DNA of 64,000 nt from Myxococcota bacterium (GCA_023150895.1 JAKLJY010000012.1:336-64335); one strand, 5' to 3'; positions 12,831 to 26,246 are shown, counted from the stretch's first letter. Notes: generated by a model not told the origin, from the letters alone. Numbers and translations: made by a program.

Positions 12831-14720
12831 ATGAGTTGGGACGCCGAAGAGGTCCTCTTCCGCGCCGTGCGCGGGGCCTGGCGTGCCGTGGCCGGGCGCC
12901 CCGGCCCCCGCCTCGACGACGAACGCGCCGTGCGTCTGCCAGAGATCGAAGCCCGTCTGCTCGCCCTCGCGCAGACCCTCGCCGGGCGGCGCCTGCTTCT
13001 GAAACCGGCGGAGACCGTCGGCGGCGTGCGCGGGGTGGTTCTCCTGCTGCCGGCCGTCGTCGACGTCGGCACCACGCGGGCCGACGCCCTCGAACACAGT
13101 GTGTTGCGCACAGTGATCTCGGCCCGGATTGCCGCCACGCCCGCCGATGACACGGGCGGGTCGCCGGCGGCCGGCCGCGACGGGCTCTCCGCCACGGTGG
13201 ACGCCCTGCTCGCCGCCCGCGCGGCCATCGACGCCCTCTGCGTCGAGTGGCCCGGCTTCGCTGCGCGCCATGCCGCCGCCGTGCGTCGAGAGTTCGAGGT
13301 CCGCACGCGACCGGCCCGGGAGACCCCGCGCGAGGCCGCTCTGGAAGACCTGCGCCGGGCGCTCGCGGAGGGTCTCCCCCTGCCCGACCGGGCGGCGGTG
13401 CTCGCGCGGCTGCGGGCGTTGCCACACAAGGGACCCGCGCGACCGGGGTTTCTGCTCTGGGGAGAGGCGCCCGCGGCGACCGATCTGTCCCTGGCCGACG
13501 CGGCGATGGCCGCCGCAGACCTCGCCGTCCGACCGCCGGACGGGGACGAGCGGATCGCCCCGCCGCGCGACGCGGTCGAACGCATCTTCTTGCCGAAGAC
13601 GGAAGAGATCGAACCGCTGCCGATGCACACCTTCGAGAAGATCGAGACGCTCGAGGCCTTCAAGGGCGGCCTGCGCAAACTCGACGGCGACGATGAGCTC
13701 GAGGAGCACCTCGAGGCCCTGAGCGAAGTGGATCTTCGGCAGGTGCTGCGCGGCGGCGACGACGTGCATGGCATCTATCGCGCCGACGTCGACCTCAGCT
13801 CGGACATCCCGGATGTGTCGCGCGCGGGCACCGACGAGCGGGGCATCCCCTACGACGAGTGGGACGCCCGGCGGGGAGTCTATCGCTCGCACTGGACCAC
13901 CGTGTACCCGGTCGTCGCGACGACGCGCGCGCCCGGCAGTGGCGCCGAGGCCGCGCGCCGCAACGGGCGGACGATCCGGACGCTGCTGCGCCGCCTGGAG
14001 GCCGAACGAACCCGATTCGCCCACGTTGATCGGCAGCTGGAAGGCGACGACGTGGACCTAGACGCACTCGTCGACGAGCACGGCCTGCGCCAGAGCGGTC
14101 ACGACGCGCCGGGCCGTGTCTATGTGCGGCGCGAACGCCGACAGCGCGACGTCGCGACGACACTCCTGCTCGACATCAGCCTGTCGGCACAGTCGTGGGT
14201 CGAGAATCGCTGCGTCCTCGACGTCAGCCGGGACGCCGCCGTCGTGCTCGGCGAGGTGGCGGCGAAGCTCGGGGACGCGCTGGAAATCCTGGCCTTCGCG
14301 AGCAACACCCGGAACCTGTGTCGAGTGTTCACGCTCAAGGCCTTCGACGACCCGTGGTTCGCGGTGCGCGACCGCCTCGGCGCCCTGGCCCCCCAAGGCT
14401 ACACCCGCGTCGGCCCCGCGCTGCGCCACGCGACGGCGGGTCTGCGCGGACGCCCGGAGCGCCATCGGATGCTGATGCTCGTCACCGACGGCAAACCGAC
14501 GGACTACGACCGCTATGAAGGCGCCTATGGCATCGCGGACGTTCGACAGGCGGTGCGCGAGGCGGCGCGGGACGGCATCGTCGTGCACGCGCTCGGCATC
14601 GATCCGCGGGCCCGCGGCGCGCTGCCGGCGATGTTCGGCCCGGGCGGTTGGGAGGTCGTGCGGCACGTCGGCGAGCTGCCGGCCGCAGTGACCACGGCCT
14701 ACGGCAAGCTCAGAAGCTGA
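12831..14720 (+). CDS. norD: NorD (von Willebrand factor A domain protein)
   Basis: The ATG lies 1 nt after the norQ stop. The C-terminal VWA domain contains LMLVTDGKPTDYD (MIDAS-like). Confidence 0.85.
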   Translation: MSWDAEEVLFRAVRGAWRAVAGRPGPRLDDERAVRLPEIEARLLALAQTLAGRRLLLKPAETVGGVRGVVLLLPAVVDVGTTRADALEHSVLRTVISARIAATPADDTGGSPAAGRDGLSATVDALLAARAAIDALCVEWPGFAARHAAAVRREFEVRTRPARETPREAALEDLRRALAEGLPLPDRAAVLARLRALPHKGPARPGFLLWGEAPAATDLSLADAAMAAADLAVRPPDGDERIAPPRDAVERIFLPKTEEIEPLPMHTFEKIETLEAFKGGLRKLDGDDELEEHLEALSEVDLRQVLRGGDDVHGIYRADVDLSSDIPDVSRAGTDERGIPYDEWDARRGVYRSHWTTVYPVVATTRAPGSGAEAARRNGRTIRTLLRRLEAERTRFAHVDRQLEGDDVDLDALVDEHGLRQSGHDAPGRVYVRRERRQRDVATTLLLDISLSAQSWVENRCVLDVSRDAAVVLGEVAAKLGDALEILAFASNTRNLCRVFTLKAFDDPWFAVRDRLGALAPQGYTRVGPALRHATAGLRGRPERHRMLMLVTDGKPTDYDRYEGAYGIADVRQAVREAARDGIVVHALGIDPRARGALPAMFGPGGWEVVRHVGELPAAVTTAYGKLRS

Positions 14721-17700
14721 GCCGGTCCGTGCCCACCGGGCGACGGCGCCGACGCCGGGCGACGGCGAGAGCGAGCAGCACGAACGGGAGCACCGCGAGG
14801 CTCCCGGAGGACGACGAACCGGGGACCGCCATGCAGCCCGCCCGTCCGTCGAGGGCGGCCTGCCGCGTGCGCGGGCCGGCCCCGGTGAGATCCGCGGGCG
14901 CTGACCCGGCGGGCCTGAGGGCGTCCGGCGCGTCGGGGTCCGGGGCGGGTTCGGGTTCGACCGGCTCGTTCGCCTCCGCGCCGGGTCGTGCGGGCGGGCC
15001 TGCATCGAGATCGCCCGGCGGCAACTCCGGCTCGGGCTCCGGCTCGGGCTCGACGGGCCCGCCGTCGTCACGCGCGGGCAGTGTATCGATGATCGCGCTC
15101 GCCCCCGCCGACGTCTGTACCCAGACCGGCCGGGGTGTCCAGGGCGGGCCCTCTGTGAGCGCGGCGACCTCGCCGGCGGGCACGGTCGCGACGGCGTCGA
15201 AGTCGAAGTGCCAGGCCGCCATGACGTCGGCGTTCGGGACGTGCCGCCGGTGCGTCCCGTCGACCACCCACACCTCGGGCGCGCCGTCGTCGCTGCGGAT
15301 GAGGCGCGGAGCGGCCGGGAAGTCATCGCTCTCGGCCCGGGCGTCGACCTCGGCCGTCGGCGCCGGCAGGGCGTCGAAGAAGGGATCGAGGCGCCAGGGA
15401 CCCGCGTCGACGAGCAGCCGACGCTGCCCCGGCGGCGGTGTCGGCGCGCACTCGAGCGTCGCGGGACTGCCATCGAGCTCGGCGTTCGCGCCCCCGGCCG
15501 CGCCGATGGCATAAGCGTGCACGGGGTGCGGCGCGCCGTCGAACAGACTGAACGGGGGCGCAAAAGCGAAGCCGTGCTCGCAGCTCCCGAGGGGGCCGCA
15601 CAGGTCGTCGCGGCGGTCGTCGGCCCGCACGGAGACACCGGGTGCCGCCCCGCCCGCCGGGCCGCCGAAGTACAGATGAACGTCGAGGGGCGCCGCGGCG
15701 TCGTCGGGATCCTGCGCCCACCCCCGCGCGGCGTCGCAGCCGGCCGCCTCGAGGTTGCCCTGCGGCGGTGCGTCCGGCGGCTCGACCTCGACGGACCAGA
15801 AGTCGAGACCCGTCTCGTCGATCACCGTCTGCAGACTGTCGTTGTAGCTCGCGTAGCGCTGGTTCCAGCAGCCGTAGTCGGGCCGGCAACCGTTGTAGTA
15901 ATGCGTGACCGTGCGGATCCACTGATCGCGCAGCGTCGCGTCGTGGATGTCGAAGTTCTGGAGCCAGATGAGCGCCCGCTCCTCGTTCTCGGCGTTGCGC
16001 GTGTATTGCGAGCGGAACGTCATGTTCACGACGTAGTCGATGGCATGGCTGACGTTGCCGGCCACCAACAAGACATCCCGCCCGTAGCGACCGAGCGTGT
16101 CGTCGAACGTGCCGGCGTCGAACTGAAACATGCCGAGGCCGCCTTGACGATCGGCGCAGGGACCGTCGGCCGATCCGGCGATCACCGGCCCGCCGCCGCA
16201 ATCCGCGCTGTCCGGTCCCTGACAGGCCCACTGCGCCTCGGACCAACAGTGGGCGAGGCCCGTCTCGGCGTGCGCGATGCCGCCGAGCAAGTACCCGGTG
16301 CGCGTCAGGCCCCGCGCGGCCGCGGCGTCGCGGATTTGGGCGTACCGTGCCATGCGCTGCTCGCGATTGAGGGCGGCCTGCACCGTCTCGAGCGCAGGCA
16401 GCGCGCGGCCCTCCGGTTCGGGTGCAGGGTACTCACACCCGGGGAGTATCGACGCGAGCGCGGCGACCGCGGCCACGACGCCGGCCCGGCGCTGGCTCGG
16501 ACGACGGCGGCGGTGGCGCGGGAGCCCGAGTGTCAGCAGCAAGAGTGCCCCCGCCCCCGGCCCCGCGGCCCCCGGACGCTGCGTGCAGCCGCCCCCACCC
16601 TCGAAGGCGGCGTGTGTCGTGCGAAGTCCCGGCCCCTCGGGGCGCGGCACCCCGGCGTCGAAAACGCCGTCCGGCAGCGGCGACGGCGGCGTCGACCCCT
16701 CCGGGGCATCACCGTCGGGGGGCGTGGCGTTCACGGGCGGGCGGTCGTGACCTGCATCCGCCCACGGCGCGCCCCCATCGGGCTCCGTCGGCGCAGGCGG
16801 ATCGGGCGGCCCCGCCGTGGCGTCCGCTTCGCCCTCCACGGGCGTCACGGCGGCGTCCGGCGTTTCCGGCGTCACGGGCGGGTCCGGCGTCTCGGGCGGA
16901 CCCGGCGGGGGCGGCACGTGCGGCCGGATGCGCACCGCGTCGACCAGGATGTGTTGATCGCCCGGCACGTTGCCATCGTAGTTGTCGAAGACCTCGACGG
17001 CCTGCGCCTCGCCGGCGCCGAAGGAGTACACCCCGAGCGGCTGCCACCCGTCGACGGCGCTCTGATCGACGATCACATCGTCGGCCCCGCCCGGGTGACG
17101 CACCGTGTACCGCGTCCGCGGCCAGATCCCGTAGGCGCCGCCCGTGCGGACCTCGACTTCGTAATCGCCGGGCACGGAGACGTGCAGCGACCAGCGCGCC
17201 CAGTTGTCCGGCTCCGCGGCGGCGAAGGCGTTCGTCCAGCGCAGGCGCCCGCCCTCGCCCTGACCGTCGACGATGCGCCAGTAGTTCGACGGCCCGAACG
17301 CCCGGAAACAGGTGCTCGCGTCGTCGACGACCCCGCCCTCCGCCGGCAGGGGCTCGCAGGGGAGCCCGACACACGGGCCGCCCCCCGGGCCACCGCCCCA
17401 CCACTCCCAGTGCCAGTCCTCGCTCGGCACGGTCCGCTCGAAGCCGTACGCCGCGCCGTTGGCGTTGAGCCAGCGCAGGACGCCGCCCGCCGCCGTGTTC
17501 AGGTCGAGGGCGTGTCCGCTCTGATGGTTCGAGAACCCGGGCCGCGCCGCGAGGTTGCAGTTGTTGCAGTTGCAGTTCTGGTAGCAGTTCCAGAAGTACG
17601 TCTGCTCGTCCATCGTGCGAAAACCGCTGGAAATGCGGATGTTCACGCCGTCGTTCGCCGCCGCCGCCTGCATGACGATGTACGCGTTGGCCGTCTCGCG

Positions 17701-17928
17701 TTCGACCGGCTCGCCATCGACGCTCACGACCGTGATGTCGAAGGGCTCGCCCTGCACGTACCCCGTGTCCGTGCGTTCGCTACAGTCGTAGACCGCCTGC
17801 TCGATGGTCTCGAGATCCGGGGGTCGCACGAAGTCCCGGCCGTCGTCCGGGTCGGGACCGGGCGCGCCCGGGTAGGTGCAGCCGACGAAGGCCAGGGCGA
17901 TGAGCCCGAGACGGACCGATGCGCTCAT
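14710..17928 (-). CDS. secreted two-module lipoprotein: N-terminal M15 (VanY-like D-Ala-D-Ala carboxypeptidase) module ending in a MYXO-CTERM-like segment, then lipobox-like segment + lysozyme/SLT-like module + terminal MYXO-CTERM
   Basis: Lipobox MSASVRLGLIALAFVGC. M15 motif GFSNHQSGHALDL. An internal sorting-signal-like segment, GGGGCTQRPGAAGPGAGALLLLTLGLPRHRRRR, is followed with no stop codon by AGVVAAVAALASILPGCEYP, then HAETGL...GGLGMFQFDAGTF, and a terminal MYXO-CTERM GCMAVPGSSSSGSLAVLPFVLLALAVARRRRRR. GAGGAG RBS. An ATGA overlap joins it to the upstream PLD gene. Confidence 0.6.
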   Translation of the reverse strand: MSASVRLGLIALAFVGCTYPGAPGPDPDDGRDFVRPPDLETIEQAVYDCSERTDTGYVQGEPFDITVVSVDGEPVERETANAYIVMQAAAANDGVNIRISSGFRTMDEQTYFWNCYQNCNCNNCNLAARPGFSNHQSGHALDLNTAAGGVLRWLNANGAAYGFERTVPSEDWHWEWWGGGPGGGPCVGLPCEPLPAEGGVVDDASTCFRAFGPSNYWRIVDGQGEGGRLRWTNAFAAAEPDNWARWSLHVSVPGDYEVEVRTGGAYGIWPRTRYTVRHPGGADDVIVDQSAVDGWQPLGVYSFGAGEAQAVEVFDNYDGNVPGDQHILVDAVRIRPHVPPPPGPPETPDPPVTPETPDAAVTPVEGEADATAGPPDPPAPTEPDGGAPWADAGHDRPPVNATPPDGDAPEGSTPPSPLPDGVFDAGVPRPEGPGLRTTHAAFEGGGGCTQRPGAAGPGAGALLLLTLGLPRHRRRRPSQRRAGVVAAVAALASILPGCEYPAPEPEGRALPALETVQAALNREQRMARYAQIRDAAAARGLTRTGYLLGGIAHAETGLAHCWSEAQWACQGPDSADCGGGPVIAGSADGPCADRQGGLGMFQFDAGTFDDTLGRYGRDVLLVAGNVSHAIDYVVNMTFRSQYTRNAENEERALIWLQNFDIHDATLRDQWIRTVTHYYNGCRPDYGCWNQRYASYNDSLQTVIDETGLDFWSVEVEPPDAPPQGNLEAAGCDAARGWAQDPDDAAAPLDVHLYFGGPAGGAAPGVSVRADDRRDDLCGPLGSCEHGFAFAPPFSLFDGAPHPVHAYAIGAAGGANAELDGSPATLECAPTPPPGQRRLLVDAGPWRLDPFFDALPAPTAEVDARAESDDFPAAPRLIRSDDGAPEVWVVDGTHRRHVPNADVMAAWHFDFDAVATVPAGEVAALTEGPPWTPRPVWVQTSAGASAIIDTLPARDDGGPVEPEPEPEPELPPGDLDAGPPARPGAEANEPVEPEPAPDPDAPDALRPAGSAPADLTGAGPRTRQAALDGRAGCMAVPGSSSSGSLAVLPFVLLALAVARRRRRRPVGTDRLSF

Positions 17929-20258
17929 TCTACAGTCTCCTCATCACACATCGTCGCCCGGGTACACGCTTCGCCGGGACCGCACGGCGACTGCGCATCG
18001 ACGTGGGTGAACGCACGGTCCATGTCGCACGCGAACGCATCGTAGACCGCCGCATTGCGAATGCGGAGCATGGCCTCGTCGTTCCGACGCAGCGAGTCGC
18101 GCGTGTAGTTGTGCGAGCCGGCGTAGACCGTCTTGCGCCCGCCCTCGTCGATCAACATGTATTTCGAATGACTCGTCACGTGGCGGCTCTGGCGACAAAA
18201 GACCTTCTGGTTGGTCCTGCGCAGCGCCCGCATCACCTTCGGGCTCGGCAGGGTGCCTCCGTGGAACGTCCCCATCAGAACGTCGACCCGGCAACCGGCG
18301 TTCCGTTTGCGACGCAGCGCGTGGTAGACCGCGCGGCGATCCTTGTTGAAGAACGCGACGTGGACGCGAATCGTGCTCGGGTTCTCGGGCGAACCGCAGT
18401 CGACGCCGCGAATCGCCTTCGCGACGGGGTCGTCCGCCCGCGGGAAGAAGAAGGCCGTCACCGTCCCGTCGTCGCGGCGCCACTTGCGCGTCTGTTGATA
18501 GAGCGTGCGCGTCTGTCGTCGCAGGGCCTGCCAGTAGGCCTCGAAGTGATCGTAAAGCCGCTTCTGGTCTCGCACGATCACCAGATGATTGAAGCGATGG
18601 TCCTGACTCTCCACGAAGTTCTGCGAGCCGTGCGCGACGATGTGCTTCCCGCCCTCGTTCGCGAGTTCGGACACCAGCAGGAACTTGTTGTGGTTGATCT
18701 TGTCGCCGATGCACCCGCCGTTCGAGCAGATCGTGAGCTTGTCCTCGCCGACGGCGGCCTTCAGCGCGGCGAGGGGCGTGTTGCGCTGATTCTTGGCCTT
18801 GCCGTCCTTCACGACGCGCAGATCGCCCGTCTTCCGCGCCTCATCGAGCGCGGCGACGTAGTCGTCTTCGTGGATCTGGAACATCGCGAGGCGCAGTTCG
18901 GCGTCCGGCGCGGCGCCCCGCAGGAGCGCCTTGTACCGATCCCGGATGGCGGTGCTCTTGCGCGCATTCGCGACGTCGTTGAACACCACCTCGATGAAGT
19001 TCGAGTCGTCCGTCTCGTCCGGGGGCGTCACCGCGCAGACGGCCTGTTTGGGTGAATCCGGAGAGACGTCGGGCACGACCTGGTCGTCCTCCGACTCGAC
19101 GTCGAACGTGGCCTCCGTCAGGCCCGCGGCGTCCTCCGCGTCGGCCTCGGGGCCGCCACAGACCCCCCACCGGGCCTCGAGCAGCCCGCCGCGCCCGTCC
19201 TCGGCGCAGAACGCCATCGCCGCCTCGGTACACTGGAAGCCCGTGTCGACGAACTTCTCGCGGCGCGCGCCGACACAGGTGGCACAACACTCGAGACAGG
19301 GCTCCGTGCGCTGATACAGCGGGACGACGTTCTCGCAGGCCGGCTGCGAGAACGAGATGGCCACCGTCTTCCGGTGCTCCCGGCATTGGCGCCACTGCGC
19401 CTGACACGTCTGCGCGTCGGGCGCCTCCATGACGAAGCGCGTGTCGTCGCAACAGACGACGGTGCATGTGCCCGGACCGGGGGCGGGTGCATCGCATACG
19501 GGAGGGGCGTCCGGCGGGCTCGGCGCGTCGACGCCCGGGGCCGGCTCCGGGTCGGGCTGGCAGTCGGGGTCCGTATCCGGATCACACAACGAGTCTTCAT
19601 CGCAGATGCCATCCGGCTCGGCGCAGTCGACGCAATCGGGATCCGTGCCCGTCGCGCACGGCTCGGGCTCGTCGCAGAACCCGTCGGGCGTCGCGCAGAG
19701 CGGGTCGGCGTCCGCGGCGGGGACGCCGTCGTCGTCGGCATCGGCGCAGTCCGGATCCGTGCCGGCGGCGCAGATGACGCCTTCGTCACAGATGCCGTCG
19801 GGCACGCCGCAGTCCGGGTCGCCCGCCGGCCCGAGGGGCACGCAATCCGGATCCGTCCCCGGGGCGCAATGGTCGGGCTCCTGGCAACGACCGTCGGCGA
19901 TTTCGCAGGCGCCGACGGGGGCCGCCACCGGCACGGCGCCCGCCGGCAACGGCCGCGCGACGTCGGGGGTCGGGCACGCATCCGCCGGCGCACCGGTCTC
20001 GCGTCCGCACGCCGCCACGTCGAAGCCCAACGGCCCCGACGCCGCCGGGGTGGCTGCGGGCCCTTCGTCCTCCGGATCGGCCGCCCAGGCGGGGGTGTCG
20101 ATGGGCGCGAGGGTCGCCGACCCGCCCGTCGGGCCGGCCGCGTCACCGGCCGAGGCGCCCCCCGTCGCACCGGCTTCGCCGCCATCGTCTGCGCCGGGCG
20201 AGCAGGCCGCACCGAGCAGCGACAGCAGCAGCAACCGACACGAGAGGGGCAGGCGCAC
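17925..20258 (-). CDS. phospholipase D family lipoprotein with N-terminal Cys-rich CxxGTDPDC repeats
   Basis: Two HKD-type motifs (HNKFLLVS...GSQNF and HSKYMLIDEGG...GSHNYT). A GTG start gives MRLPLSCRLLLLSLLGAAC, with GGAG upstream. The track ORF's first 292 aa are an Arg-rich alternate-frame extension. Confidence 0.7.
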   Translation of the reverse strand: MRLPLSCRLLLLSLLGAACSPGADDGGEAGATGGASAGDAAGPTGGSATLAPIDTPAWAADPEDEGPAATPAASGPLGFDVAACGRETGAPADACPTPDVARPLPAGAVPVAAPVGACEIADGRCQEPDHCAPGTDPDCVPLGPAGDPDCGVPDGICDEGVICAAGTDPDCADADDDGVPAADADPLCATPDGFCDEPEPCATGTDPDCVDCAEPDGICDEDSLCDPDTDPDCQPDPEPAPGVDAPSPPDAPPVCDAPAPGPGTCTVVCCDDTRFVMEAPDAQTCQAQWRQCREHRKTVAISFSQPACENVVPLYQRTEPCLECCATCVGARREKFVDTGFQCTEAAMAFCAEDGRGGLLEARWGVCGGPEADAEDAAGLTEATFDVESEDDQVVPDVSPDSPKQAVCAVTPPDETDDSNFIEVVFNDVANARKSTAIRDRYKALLRGAAPDAELRLAMFQIHEDDYVAALDEARKTGDLRVVKDGKAKNQRNTPLAALKAAVGEDKLTICSNGGCIGDKINHNKFLLVSELANEGGKHIVAHGSQNFVESQDHRFNHLVIVRDQKRLYDHFEAYWQALRRQTRTLYQQTRKWRRDDGTVTAFFFPRADDPVAKAIRGVDCGSPENPSTIRVHVAFFNKDRRAVYHALRRKRNAGCRVDVLMGTFHGGTLPSPKVMRALRRTNQKVFCRQSRHVTSHSKYMLIDEGGRKTVYAGSHNYTRDSLRRNDEAMLRIRNAAVYDAFACDMDRAFTHVDAQSPCGPGEACTRATMCDEETVE

Positions 20259-25296: not shown

Positions 25297-25487
25297 CGAC
25301 GGCGCGGCCGGCGGCGGGGCGCAGTGGCGAGGGACCTGGGGGTGGGTCGCGACATGCCCGAAGCCTCGCCCAGGCCCGCGCGCGAGGCAAGGCCGGGGCG
25401 TTCGGCCACCAGCGTTTTCACGGCGACCGTTTGCGGACATGATGCGCGGGTGCCCGAGACGTGCTCCGCCCCCGAGGAGAAAAGCCC

Positions 25488-26246
25488 GTGACCTCTGCCT
25501 TCCGACCCATTCTGGCTCCGCTGATCGTCGCCCTCGCGGGCGCGCGCCCCGCGCTCGCTCACATTCAGCTCGACGACCCCCCGGCGCGCACGACGCAACA
25601 GAAGGACGGCCCGTGCGGCGCGGCGGGCAGCCCCCGTGGTGCGGCGGTCACCGTCTTCGCGCCCGGCGAGACCATCACCGTGCGCTGGCGCGAGACCATC
25701 AATCACCCGTCCCACTATCGCATCGCGTTCGACGCGGACGGCGATGACGACTTCGCCGATCCGGCGGACTTCATGGACTTCTCGGGCAATCCGACGGTGC
25801 TTCTCGATGCCATCGGGGACCGCGCCGGGGGCGACTACAGTGCGTTGGTGACCCTGCCGGACGTCGTCTGCGAAACCTGTACCCTCCAGCTCGTTCAGGT
25901 CATGTACGACAAGCCGCCCTACGGCGACGGCAACGATCTGTACTACCAGTGCGCCGACCTCGCCCTGCGACGCGCAGAAGCGCCCGGGCCCGACGCCTCG
26001 CCCGATGAGGCGCCCGAGCCCGACGCGGCGCCCGAGCCCGACGCCGTGCAGCCGGTCGTCCCCGAGGTCCCCGAGCCGGCGCCCGACGAGCTCGCCGACG
26101 CGGGCCCCTCGACGGCGCCCCCCGATACCGCCGACGACGACGGGGAGGGCTGTACGGCTCGCCCCGGCACATCGACGCCGGCCGTGTCGGGTCTGTTCGC
26201 GGCCGGGCTCGTCGCCGCTGCACTCGCGCGCCGTCGCCGCCGCTGA
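25488..26246 (+). CDS. secreted protein with predicted N-terminal His after signal cleavage and C-terminal MYXO-CTERM (possible copper-binding CopC/LPMO-like fold)
   Basis: A GTG start is preceded by GAGGAG 9 nt upstream. Signal peptide MTSAFRPILAPLIVALAGARPALA|HIQLDDP. Pro/Glu/Asp-rich linker. C-terminus GCTARPGTSTPAVSGLFAAGLVAAALARRRRR. Confidence 0.5.
   Translation: MTSAFRPILAPLIVALAGARPALAHIQLDDPPARTTQQKDGPCGAAGSPRGAAVTVFAPGETITVRWRETINHPSHYRIAFDADGDDDFADPADFMDFSGNPTVLLDAIGDRAGGDYSALVTLPDVVCETCTLQLVQVMYDKPPYGDGNDLYYQCADLALRRAEAPGPDASPDEAPEPDAAPEPDAVQPVVPEVPEPAPDELADAGPSTAPPDTADDDGEGCTARPGTSTPAVSGLFAAGLVAAALARRRRR

Follow-up and report, generated by a model that had tools for sequence, protein, structure and literature searches.

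Introduction

How can a sorting signal that usually closes a polypeptide stand in the middle of one, immediately ahead of what looks like the signal peptide of a second secreted protein? The question is raised by a 64,000-nucleotide stretch of DNA from a Myxococcota bacterium (GCA_023150895.1, JAKLJY010000012.1:336-64335), hereafter called the window, in which a single open reading frame (ORF) at 14710..17928 carries two secreted modules and an internal MYXO-CTERM-like signal. An original prediction, made from the sequence alone, had pointed to this arrangement and to the absence of a stop codon within it. It had offered a recent stop-codon loss or gene fusion, a sequencing or assembly error, or a second gene nested in the first as explanations, and had proposed a comparison with orthologous loci. 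Here, we report that the ORF is a genuine and conserved in-frame fusion with a recurrent architecture, and not an artefact. Judged by its signals, it appears to consist of two complete precursors, each made of a lipoprotein signal peptide, a peptidoglycan-hydrolase cargo and a MYXO-CTERM, joined with every signal retained. The junction between them is probably a membrane hairpin that the sorting machinery excises to give two mature lipid-anchored enzymes. This is the best-supported mechanism, cleavage being predicted from the signals.

In the lipoprotein pathway Lgt acts first, and LspA then cuts before the lipobox Cys. For MYXO-CTERM proteins, the passages of a recent paper that deal with the pathway (PMC11980579, mBio 2025) describe a model with Sec export, anchoring by a helix whose Arg cluster stays cytoplasmic, lipidation of an invariant Cys with Lgt as the candidate enzyme, cleavage by MrtX distal to this Cys, and surface transfer through type II secretion (T2SS).

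Results and Discussion

Two modules in one reading frame

The ORF lies on the minus strand, which the original prediction had left out, and encodes 1072 aa (ORF call on the window); its extent, 14710-17928, was as had been described. The anatomy proposed for it, from a lipobox and a VanY/M15 peptidase through an internal MYXO-CTERM and a lipobox-like segment to a second module with a second MYXO-CTERM, was also correct. The strings on which it was based are present in the translation, which holds ...GGGGCTQRPGAAGPGAGALLLLTLGLPRHRRRR PSQRR AGVVAAVAALASILPGC EYP... as well as GGLGMFQFDAGTF, and which ends in a second tail of Cys, transmembrane (TM) segment and RRRRRR. The features are as follows, in the order of translation.

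17878..17928, minus strand: N-terminal lipoprotein signal peptide of module 1, MSASVRLGLIALAFVGC, with lipobox Cys17 (from the translation)
17395..17706, minus strand: VanY/peptidase M15 D-Ala-D-Ala carboxypeptidase domain, aa 75-178 (Pfam PF02557, 56.9 bits, cutoff 25)
16927..17217, minus strand: Golvesin_C accessory domain of module 1, aa 238-334 (Pfam PF25275, 46.2 bits, cutoff 31.6)
16600..16923, minus strand: disordered linker 1, rich in Pro, Glu and Asp, aa 336-443 (indels all in multiples of 3 when compared with the ortholog P0002)
16501..16599, minus strand: internal MYXO-CTERM sorting domain, aa 444-476, GGGGC448-TQRPGAAGPGAG-ALLLLTLGLP-RHRRRR (TIGR03901.2)
16435..16500, minus strand: putative internal lipoprotein signal peptide without initiator Met, aa 477-498, PSQRR-AGVVAAVAALASI-LPGC498 (from sequence pattern and position in homologs)
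15751..16434, minus strand: catalytic-type domain of module 2, aa 499-726 (323 homologs; ratio of nonsynonymous to synonymous substitution rates, dN/dS, 0.02; AlphaFold2 model with a predicted local distance difference test score, pLDDT, of 92.4)
14974..15750, minus strand: two accessory domains of module 2, aa 727-850 (GWAQDPD...VHLYFGGPAG) and aa 851-985 (...VWVVDG..RRHVP...AW.F), with no Pfam model
14740..14841, minus strand: C-terminal MYXO-CTERM of module 2, aa 1030-1063, with Cys1032 and ...ARRRRRR (scanned alone, TIGR03901 19.8 bits and TIGR03382 16.3 bits, the latter with a cutoff of 15.85)
14710-14739, minus strand: 9-aa tail and stop codon after the C-terminal MYXO-CTERM

Module 1 starts at an ATG at 17928 that has a Shine-Dalgarno (SD) sequence, GAGGAG, 8 nt upstream and overlaps the stop codon of an upstream phospholipase D (PLD)-like gene (ATGA). 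The metal and catalytic motifs of its VanY domain (H-x6-D and E-x2-H) are intact, as SNHQSGHALD at aa 133 and EDWHWE at aa 170, and the protein scores far below the cutoffs of the NCBIfam LdcB/VanY equivalog models. As a rule, VanY genes have a single module with an N-terminal lipobox and, at the C-terminus, a MYXO-CTERM-like tail, which is found in 43 of the 58 VanY ORFs of species-representative genomes.

At the junction the codons read GGC TGC ACG ... CTC CCG CGC CAC CGC CGC CGT CGT CCG AGC CAG CGC CGG GCC GGC GTC GTG ... CCC GGG TGT GAG, and codon reading found no in-frame stop there, in agreement with what had been claimed. When scanned alone, the internal segment passes TIGR03901.2 with 21.2 bits (cutoff 20). 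It is tripartite, with the invariant Cys in GGGGC448, the helix ALLLLTLGLP and the cluster RHRRRR, and the three parts are kept in P0002. It is not C-terminal, as 596 residues follow. The next segment was compared with a signal peptidase II (SPII) pattern, [LVI][ASTVI][GAS]C at the end of a hydrophobic region of 7-22 residues after a positively charged region. Its n-region QRR (plus RHRRRR), its 16-residue h-region AGVVAAVAALASILPG and Cys498 fit, and position -2 is Pro. The internal lipobox occupies the position of the N-terminal lipoprotein signal of stand-alone module 2 homologs, with the lipobox Cys at the same distance from PRYAxIRDAA. In the window ORF this signal peptide is not at the N-terminus of a chain: it has no upstream stop, no conserved start codon and no SD sequence.

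A side observation on the junction (16435-16620, minus strand) is a weak match to NCBIfam NF058595, 'lipo-invert putative C-terminal anchoring domain', which spans helix, Arg cluster, helix and lipobox. At 14.2 bits against a cutoff of 37 the junction is not a member, and the model may represent a related hairpin-type anchor.

Conservation of the fused gene

The G+C content at third codon positions (GC3) in the frame of the ORF is 0.80-0.97 from start to stop, junction included. GC3 is steady in one frame across the junction, and therefore there is no hidden frameshift. The Logan assembly of another run (SRR10609169) contains the same unbroken ORF with 2 differences in 3219 nt (P831L and A1034T). 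An ortholog, P0002 (1060 aa, 76% identity, 98% coverage), is identical in three assemblies and keeps the junction in frame, and the same junction is carried by at least 30 distinct proteins from unrelated assemblies. A sequencing or assembly artefact, in which a missed stop or an indel joins two ordinary genes, has in its favor only a prior plausibility, as long spurious ORFs are common in a genome of 72% GC (G+C of the window, 71.6%). Against it stand the constant GC3 frame, the junction in at least 30 proteins and the independent assemblies of both genes, the last of which refute the error that had been offered as an explanation. A frameshift or missed stop is ruled out by the GC3 frame plot and the independent assemblies, and the chance that the fusion is an artefact is negligible.

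P0002 also shares the upstream synteny of the window, with a PLD-like gene overlapping its start. In a codon alignment, the synonymous divergence (dS) between the window gene and P0002 is 0.83. A dN/dS of 0.05 in VanY and of 0.02 in the module 2 domain shows that strong purifying selection acts on both catalytic domains; the ratio in Golvesin_C is 0.14. The junction itself is 58% identical and in frame, with a single indel of 6 nt. P0002 retains GGC-TQRPGA, the Leu-rich helix, the Arg cluster, LPGCEYP and both Cys.

These data bear on the possibility of a recent, neutral loss of a stop codon in a gene on its way to decay, with one module or the signals non-functional. The fused state is indeed rare compared with single-module genes, and close split neighbors exist (a 14-nt gap in L054 and an ATGA overlap in L077), with spacing so small that a single mutation could create the fusion. 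However, the fusion is older than the split from P0002 (dS 0.83), dN/dS is 0.02-0.05 in both catalytic domains, and the junction features are retained. We consider a recent loss very improbable. Of the proposed stop-codon loss or gene fusion, the fusion stands, whereas a very recent accident does not agree with a P0002 that is still fused at a dS of ~0.83 and still has both Cys, the Arg cluster and the lipobox. The comparison of orthologous loci found the same fusion in P0002, with an internal segment in the window that passes the MYXO-CTERM model.

Two further observations concern the locus and its relatives. Very long antisense and off-frame ORFs of up to 945 aa overlap the gene (window 15208-18045 on the plus strand, and other frames). 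Because GC3 peaks only in the minus-strand frame, these are shadow ORFs typical of 72% GC DNA, and not genes. The closest species-representative match, L009 (JBILLN010000091.1, a 'Bradymonadia bacterium' metagenome-assembled genome, MAG), has 88% identity over aa 5-218 and ends at a contig edge. It gives a hint of the lineage of the organism, whose own genome is absent from the representatives.

Recurrence of the junction

The relatives of the full protein comprised 115 sequences, all of at least 589 aa and thus a length-biased sample. Internal Cys-helix-Arg segments were sought in them without requiring anything downstream. In 19 of the 21 internal MYXO-CTERM-like segments found, a hydrophobic stretch and a lipobox Cys followed within 55 residues, compared with 1.15% of random internal windows (binomial P ~3e-35). 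P0063, with LFGC, is a twentieth case missed by the search pattern alone, and P0003 adds another. The fused partners and their orders are diverse: Amidase_2-VanY, VanY-Amidase_2, VanY-SpoIID, SpoIID-VanY, NAGPA-VanY and VanY with a lectin-type partner. When the internal tags of other fusions were extracted alone, 9 of 10 passed TIGR03901, with 20.9-41.2 bits.

Fusion of this kind has arisen more than once. L082:3890-7204 (plus strand; Ga0209575_10000222) has the two families of the window in reverse order, the module-2-type domain first and VanY second, with the same type of junction, and is an independent fusion event. On a 1.6-Mb contig of a Polyangiaceae MAG, L026:4018-9894 (plus strand; CBDCTZ010000015.1) is a three-module ORF, SpoIID-VanY-Amidase_2, with two MYXO-CTERM-to-lipobox junctions and the same Cys-rich and SLH-like accessory region in each module. 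In L077, VanY and Amidase_2 are fused and a separate SpoIID lipoprotein gene follows, its ATG overlapping the TGA (ATGA). One and the same gene set is thus found fused in L026 and partly split in L077, and fusion took place repeatedly. Downstream of single-module VanY genes, the ancestral split arrangement was found only in L054 (14-nt gap) and L077 (ATGA overlap), so tight adjacency is not the common state. In 1.29 Mb of related DNA with 642 long ORFs, 96 of them with a MYXO-like tail, the junction pattern occurred only in these hydrolase genes.

A set of 25 junctions is uniform in layout. The two Cys are 38-63 aa apart (median, 45 aa), the first helix measures ~18 aa, and the median length of the second hydrophobic segment is 13 aa. 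The loop between them has 3-23 aa and a net charge of +3 to +9, the lipobox is always xxGC, and acidic residues number 8 in 1193. Both Cys are retained in all 25. In five orthologous pairs the junctions are 57-81% identical and the whole proteins 70-88%, and both Cys, the Arg cluster or basic loop, and the hydrophobicity are always kept. Such divergence with kept features reads as the signature of selection on features and not on sequence.

A HMMER profile of 19 junctions was used for an exhaustive search of 1.84 billion representatives, and gave 19 matches at E<=0.001. Against a word-indexed protein database, a junction profile gave one meaningless match only. The new proteins among the 19 matches are not cell-wall enzymes:

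P0239: trypsin-like protease fused to an unknown module
P0247: PD40 propeller protein
P0244, 2106 aa: MopE-repeat protein with three modules
P0246, 2220 aa: CARDB/He_PIG adhesin-like protein
P0238, 971 aa: Ig-like protein with three modules
P0237, 1236 aa: protein with four paralogous modules

The internal tags of P0237, P0238, P0244 and P0246 are followed by signals of the signal peptidase I (SPI) type. In each new match, the type of the N-terminal signal, SPI or SPII, is repeated in the internal one of the same protein, lipobox going with lipobox and AxA with AxA. For instance, P0246 has GAALA/QQ at the N-terminus and APALA/QT internally. From these sequences, a unit of signal peptide, cargo and MYXO-CTERM, repeated two to four times, is the rule, with unrelated cargo included.

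Proposed processing of the junction

The processing that we favor can be laid out from the order of the signals. Module 1 would be exported by Sec from its N-terminal signal on, until the helix of the internal MYXO-CTERM (aa ~459-470) stops transfer and leaves the RHRRRR..QRR loop in the cytoplasm. The next hydrophobic segment (aa 482-497) would re-insert N-in/C-out as a signal peptide and export module 2, until the terminal MYXO-CTERM stops transfer again. The two helices of the junction would form a hairpin in which each has a Cys at its periplasmic end, and the Arg loop would satisfy the positive-inside rule for both. Cys448 would be lipidated before MrtX cleaves distal to it, and Lgt would act before LspA cleaves ahead of Cys498. 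This double cut would excise the hairpin, aa 449-497 (49 aa, 4.9 kDa), and release Cys17-Cys448 (45.7 kDa) and Cys498-Cys1032 (56.5 kDa) from a precursor of 112.9 kDa (computed masses). The ORF product would in effect be a bacterial polyprotein that is processed at the membrane. A tag ending in the cytoplasm is topologically compatible with a signal peptide starting there, and the fusion would for this reason be tolerated and hence recurrent; a single mutation at an ATGA overlap like that of L077 would create it.

Several points weigh against this mechanism. The score of the internal MYXO-CTERM is barely over the cutoff (21.2 versus 20 bits), and the strongly hydrophobic core of the tag is short (ALLLLTLGL). 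The full-length NCBIfam scan reported neither TIGR03901 nor TIGR03382, and listed as sole related entry the MXAN_0125 family model, which the C-terminal tail matches below threshold (E=0.86). The lipobox, LPGC, is atypical and outside the classic pattern because of its Pro at -2, and is identical in P0002. A Met codon stands at -1 or -2 of the Arg cluster in 3 of the 25 junctions (P0003/L074, P0025/L078 and P0032/L076), which exceeds the expectation from Met frequency. Where samples are not length-biased, the fusion is found in a minority (2-3 of 58 VanY ORFs and 1 of 78 module 2 ORFs), and it may therefore be neutral and not advantageous. Finally, neither action of Lgt and LspA on a lipobox away from the chain N-terminus nor lipoprotein polyproteins were found in the literature searched, and we know of no demonstration of Lgt or LspA acting on a lipobox that is not N-terminal.

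Some of these points would suit a real fusion that is left uncleaved or is cleaved by half. The hairpin would then be a permanent two-helix inner-membrane anchor for both periplasmic hydrolases or, if myxosortase alone cuts, module 1 would be freed and module 2 would stay hairpin-anchored. The topological argument is equally valid without cleavage, the internal lipobox with its Pro at -2 is neither typical nor N-terminal, and the literature searched gave no case of LspA acting on an internal one. However, such an anchor has no need of two Cys, and yet they are kept in 25 of 25 junctions and in five diverging orthologous pairs. In addition, 9 of 10 internal tags pass the curated MYXO-CTERM model, the internal signal is always of the cleavable type used at the N-terminus of the same protein, and a central sorting signal, that of the archaeal protein HVO_0405, is cleaved according to the relevant part of PMC7157517. 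An uncleaved or half-cleaved anchor is thus rather unlikely.

Beyond excision of the hairpin, a deliberate bacterial polyprotein strategy may be envisaged as a tentative and somewhat doubtful extension. The junction would be a mirror-symmetric double lipidation site, with Lgt acting on both Cys, and MrtX and LspA (signal peptidase I in the SPI cases) would excise the hairpin. Selection would favor fusion for placing between two and four surface enzymes or adhesins on the predator in a fixed ratio, in this case a cell-wall-lytic set. Lgt is already suspected as the MYXO-CTERM acyltransferase in PMC11980579.

Candidate internal translation starts

The original prediction had also considered a second gene starting at an in-frame GTG near 16475. 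The codon is indeed there, at 16474..16476 (Val485), and an in-frame TTG (Leu463) is found at 16540..16542. Module 2 could be translated from either, the segment being an ordinary N-terminal lipoprotein signal and the read-through of a lost stop incidental. With the TTG as start the signal peptide would be long and plausible, P0002 also has a TTG in the same helix, and the three junctions with an ATG right before the Arg cluster would fit as well. Such a Met is probably the relic start of the downstream gene, whose n-region is now the Arg cluster of the tag, and a functional start there could exist.

The candidates are not conserved in position, however. TTG463 and GTG485 of the window align with CTG and GTC in P0002, whose own TTG and GTG codons are elsewhere, and across 10 junction DNAs there is no positionally conserved start (ATG, GTG or TTG), L059 having no usable candidate. 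A start at GTG485 would give a signal peptide without charged n-region and has no SD motif, so the nested gene proposed from this codon is not supported. An SD-like motif was found ahead of 5 of 9 true starts but of 1 of 22 internal candidates, with a Fisher P of 0.004 when counted by candidate and 0.057 when counted by junction, and the frequency of TTG in the helices does not clearly exceed that expected from Leu codon usage. Moreover, even with an internal start the full-length fusion would still be made and would still need processing. A nested or overlapping gene as the source of module 2 is improbable.

Precedents and implications

The premise that the sorting signal must be C-terminal was too strong. 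An internal MYXO-CTERM is called rare in the parts of PMC11980579 that concern it, which attribute MXAN_5598 of Myxococcus xanthus to a fusion of two genes and propose that its N-terminal part is processed and surface-anchored. Like the window ORF, MXAN_5598 has the tag in mid-ORF. By its description there, it differs in that the downstream part is an outer-membrane beta-barrel with an OmpA domain, and those passages mention neither a signal peptide or lipobox after the tag nor a second MYXO-CTERM, and speak of no recurrence and no ORFs with several modules. HVO_0405 of Haloferax volcanii, in the part of PMC7157517 devoted to it, is a fusion of two genes with a central tripartite ArtA signal that is cleaved in vivo, dependent on the sorting enzyme and on lipidation. 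It shares with the window ORF a normally C-terminal sorting signal placed centrally by gene fusion. Unlike the window ORF, it is archaeal, uses PGF-CTERM/ArtA and not MYXO-CTERM/MrtX, and is described there as a strain-specific single case.

Flavivirus C-prM-E polyproteins have an anchor followed by an internal signal peptide, and the primary HVO_0405 study is said to be that of Abdul Halim and colleagues (J Bacteriol, 2017). The same viral arrangement, a stop-transfer anchor and then an internal signal peptide, is found in the Gn/Gc precursor of SFTSV (PMC5113920). As at the window junction, in viral envelope polyproteins a TM anchor leads through a short loop in the cytoplasm to an internal signal peptide, and host membrane peptidases separate the ectodomains of one ORF. 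Unlike it, they are processed in the eukaryotic endoplasmic reticulum by signal peptidase I alone, and neither lipid anchoring nor a protease for sorting tags takes part, so the likeness is mechanistic and not one of homology.

Bacteria offer two looser parallels. The FbcH cytochrome b/c1 precursor of Bradyrhizobium japonicum is reportedly (work of Thony-Meyer and colleagues) a membrane polyprotein that is cut at an internal signal peptide to give two proteins, both functional. It differs from the window ORF in its type I signal peptidase, its respiratory-chain subunits, and its lack of a C-terminal sorting tag and of a lipobox. Atl of Staphylococcus aureus is a bifunctional autolysin precursor whose two peptidoglycan hydrolases are separated after export. 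Unlike the window ORF, it has a single signal peptide, is processed by extracellular proteolysis, and contains no internal membrane hairpin or sorting signals. An obligatory pairing of internal tag and signal peptide, and its recurrence, were not found in the literature searched.

If the junction is cut as predicted, bacterial sorting enzymes would double as polyprotein processors, and one ORF would give two to four separately anchored surface proteins. Such ORFs would be mis-annotated as single multidomain proteins, with the internal sorting tag dismissed as noise or error. They would also be natural substrates in which precursor and products are far apart in size (113 kDa versus 46 + 57 kDa), and could test what lipidates the MYXO-CTERM Cys and whether LspA acts on an internal lipobox. 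Size-shifted precursor and products are what made HVO_0405 useful for archaeosortase work. Should the reading as a polyprotein strategy be true, the fused genes would be natural reporters for the unsolved MYXO-CTERM lipidation step.

Module 2 and the neighborhood of the gene

A search of the protein collection with the catalytic-type domain of module 2 gave 323 homologs. Almost all belong to Myxococcota, most are 240-400 aa long, and LGFP repeats are frequent in them. In the domain, the motifs AHAETG, GGLGMFQFD and HYYNG are conserved, as are Cys residues, and E57, D106, several Trp and five Cys are invariant in the family (alignment numbering, the first sequence starting at aa 499). Of the 120 homologs listed among the 323, 90 have an N-terminal lipoprotein signal whose lipobox Cys lies ~20-30 aa before PRYAxIRDAA, like Cys498. 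The closest relatives on metagenome contigs (L080-L088, 65-71% identity) are stand-alone proteins with their own Met, a lipoprotein signal and a C-terminal MYXO-CTERM.

The description of module 2 as lysozyme-like or soluble lytic transglycosylase (SLT)-like was plausible. Its AlphaFold model gave only weak matches in BFVD (best E 0.05), mostly to transglycosylases and tail lysozymes, and the domain is possibly lysozyme- or lytic-transglycosylase-like on the basis of this model. The description is unproven, as no Pfam, NCBIfam or PDB match was found and a Foldseek search of the model (pLDDT 92.4) against PDB was empty; neither a sequence model for SLT or lysozyme nor a solved lysozyme-like fold gave a significant match. 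The domain looks like an undescribed cell-wall enzyme family common in Myxococcota. Many relatives carry the two accessory domains of module 2 as well, there behind VanY, Amidase_2, SpoIID or the module 2 domain, and P0003 has them twice. The pair may be a shared targeting or binding unit.

Directly upstream of the fused gene lies a gene for a PLD-like lipoprotein (PLDc_2, with HKD motif) at 17925-~20200 on the minus strand of the window; its counterpart in the P0002 locus is L001:7728-10004. Such conserved synteny suggests that a phospholipase- or nuclease-type enzyme is co-expressed with the cell-wall hydrolases. It is a speculation that the cargo as a whole, that is D-Ala-D-Ala carboxypeptidase, amidase, SpoIID, the putative muramidase and the adjoining PLD-like lipoprotein, is a co-delivered cell-wall-lytic set for myxobacterial predation.

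Elsewhere in the window, 25443-26246 on the plus strand encodes a SCE4755-family polysaccharide-monooxygenase-like protein (159.5 bits) with a canonical C-terminal MYXO-CTERM ending in ...ALARRRRR and the stop codon. With this protein as internal control, the organism appears to use MYXO-CTERM normally elsewhere in the window.

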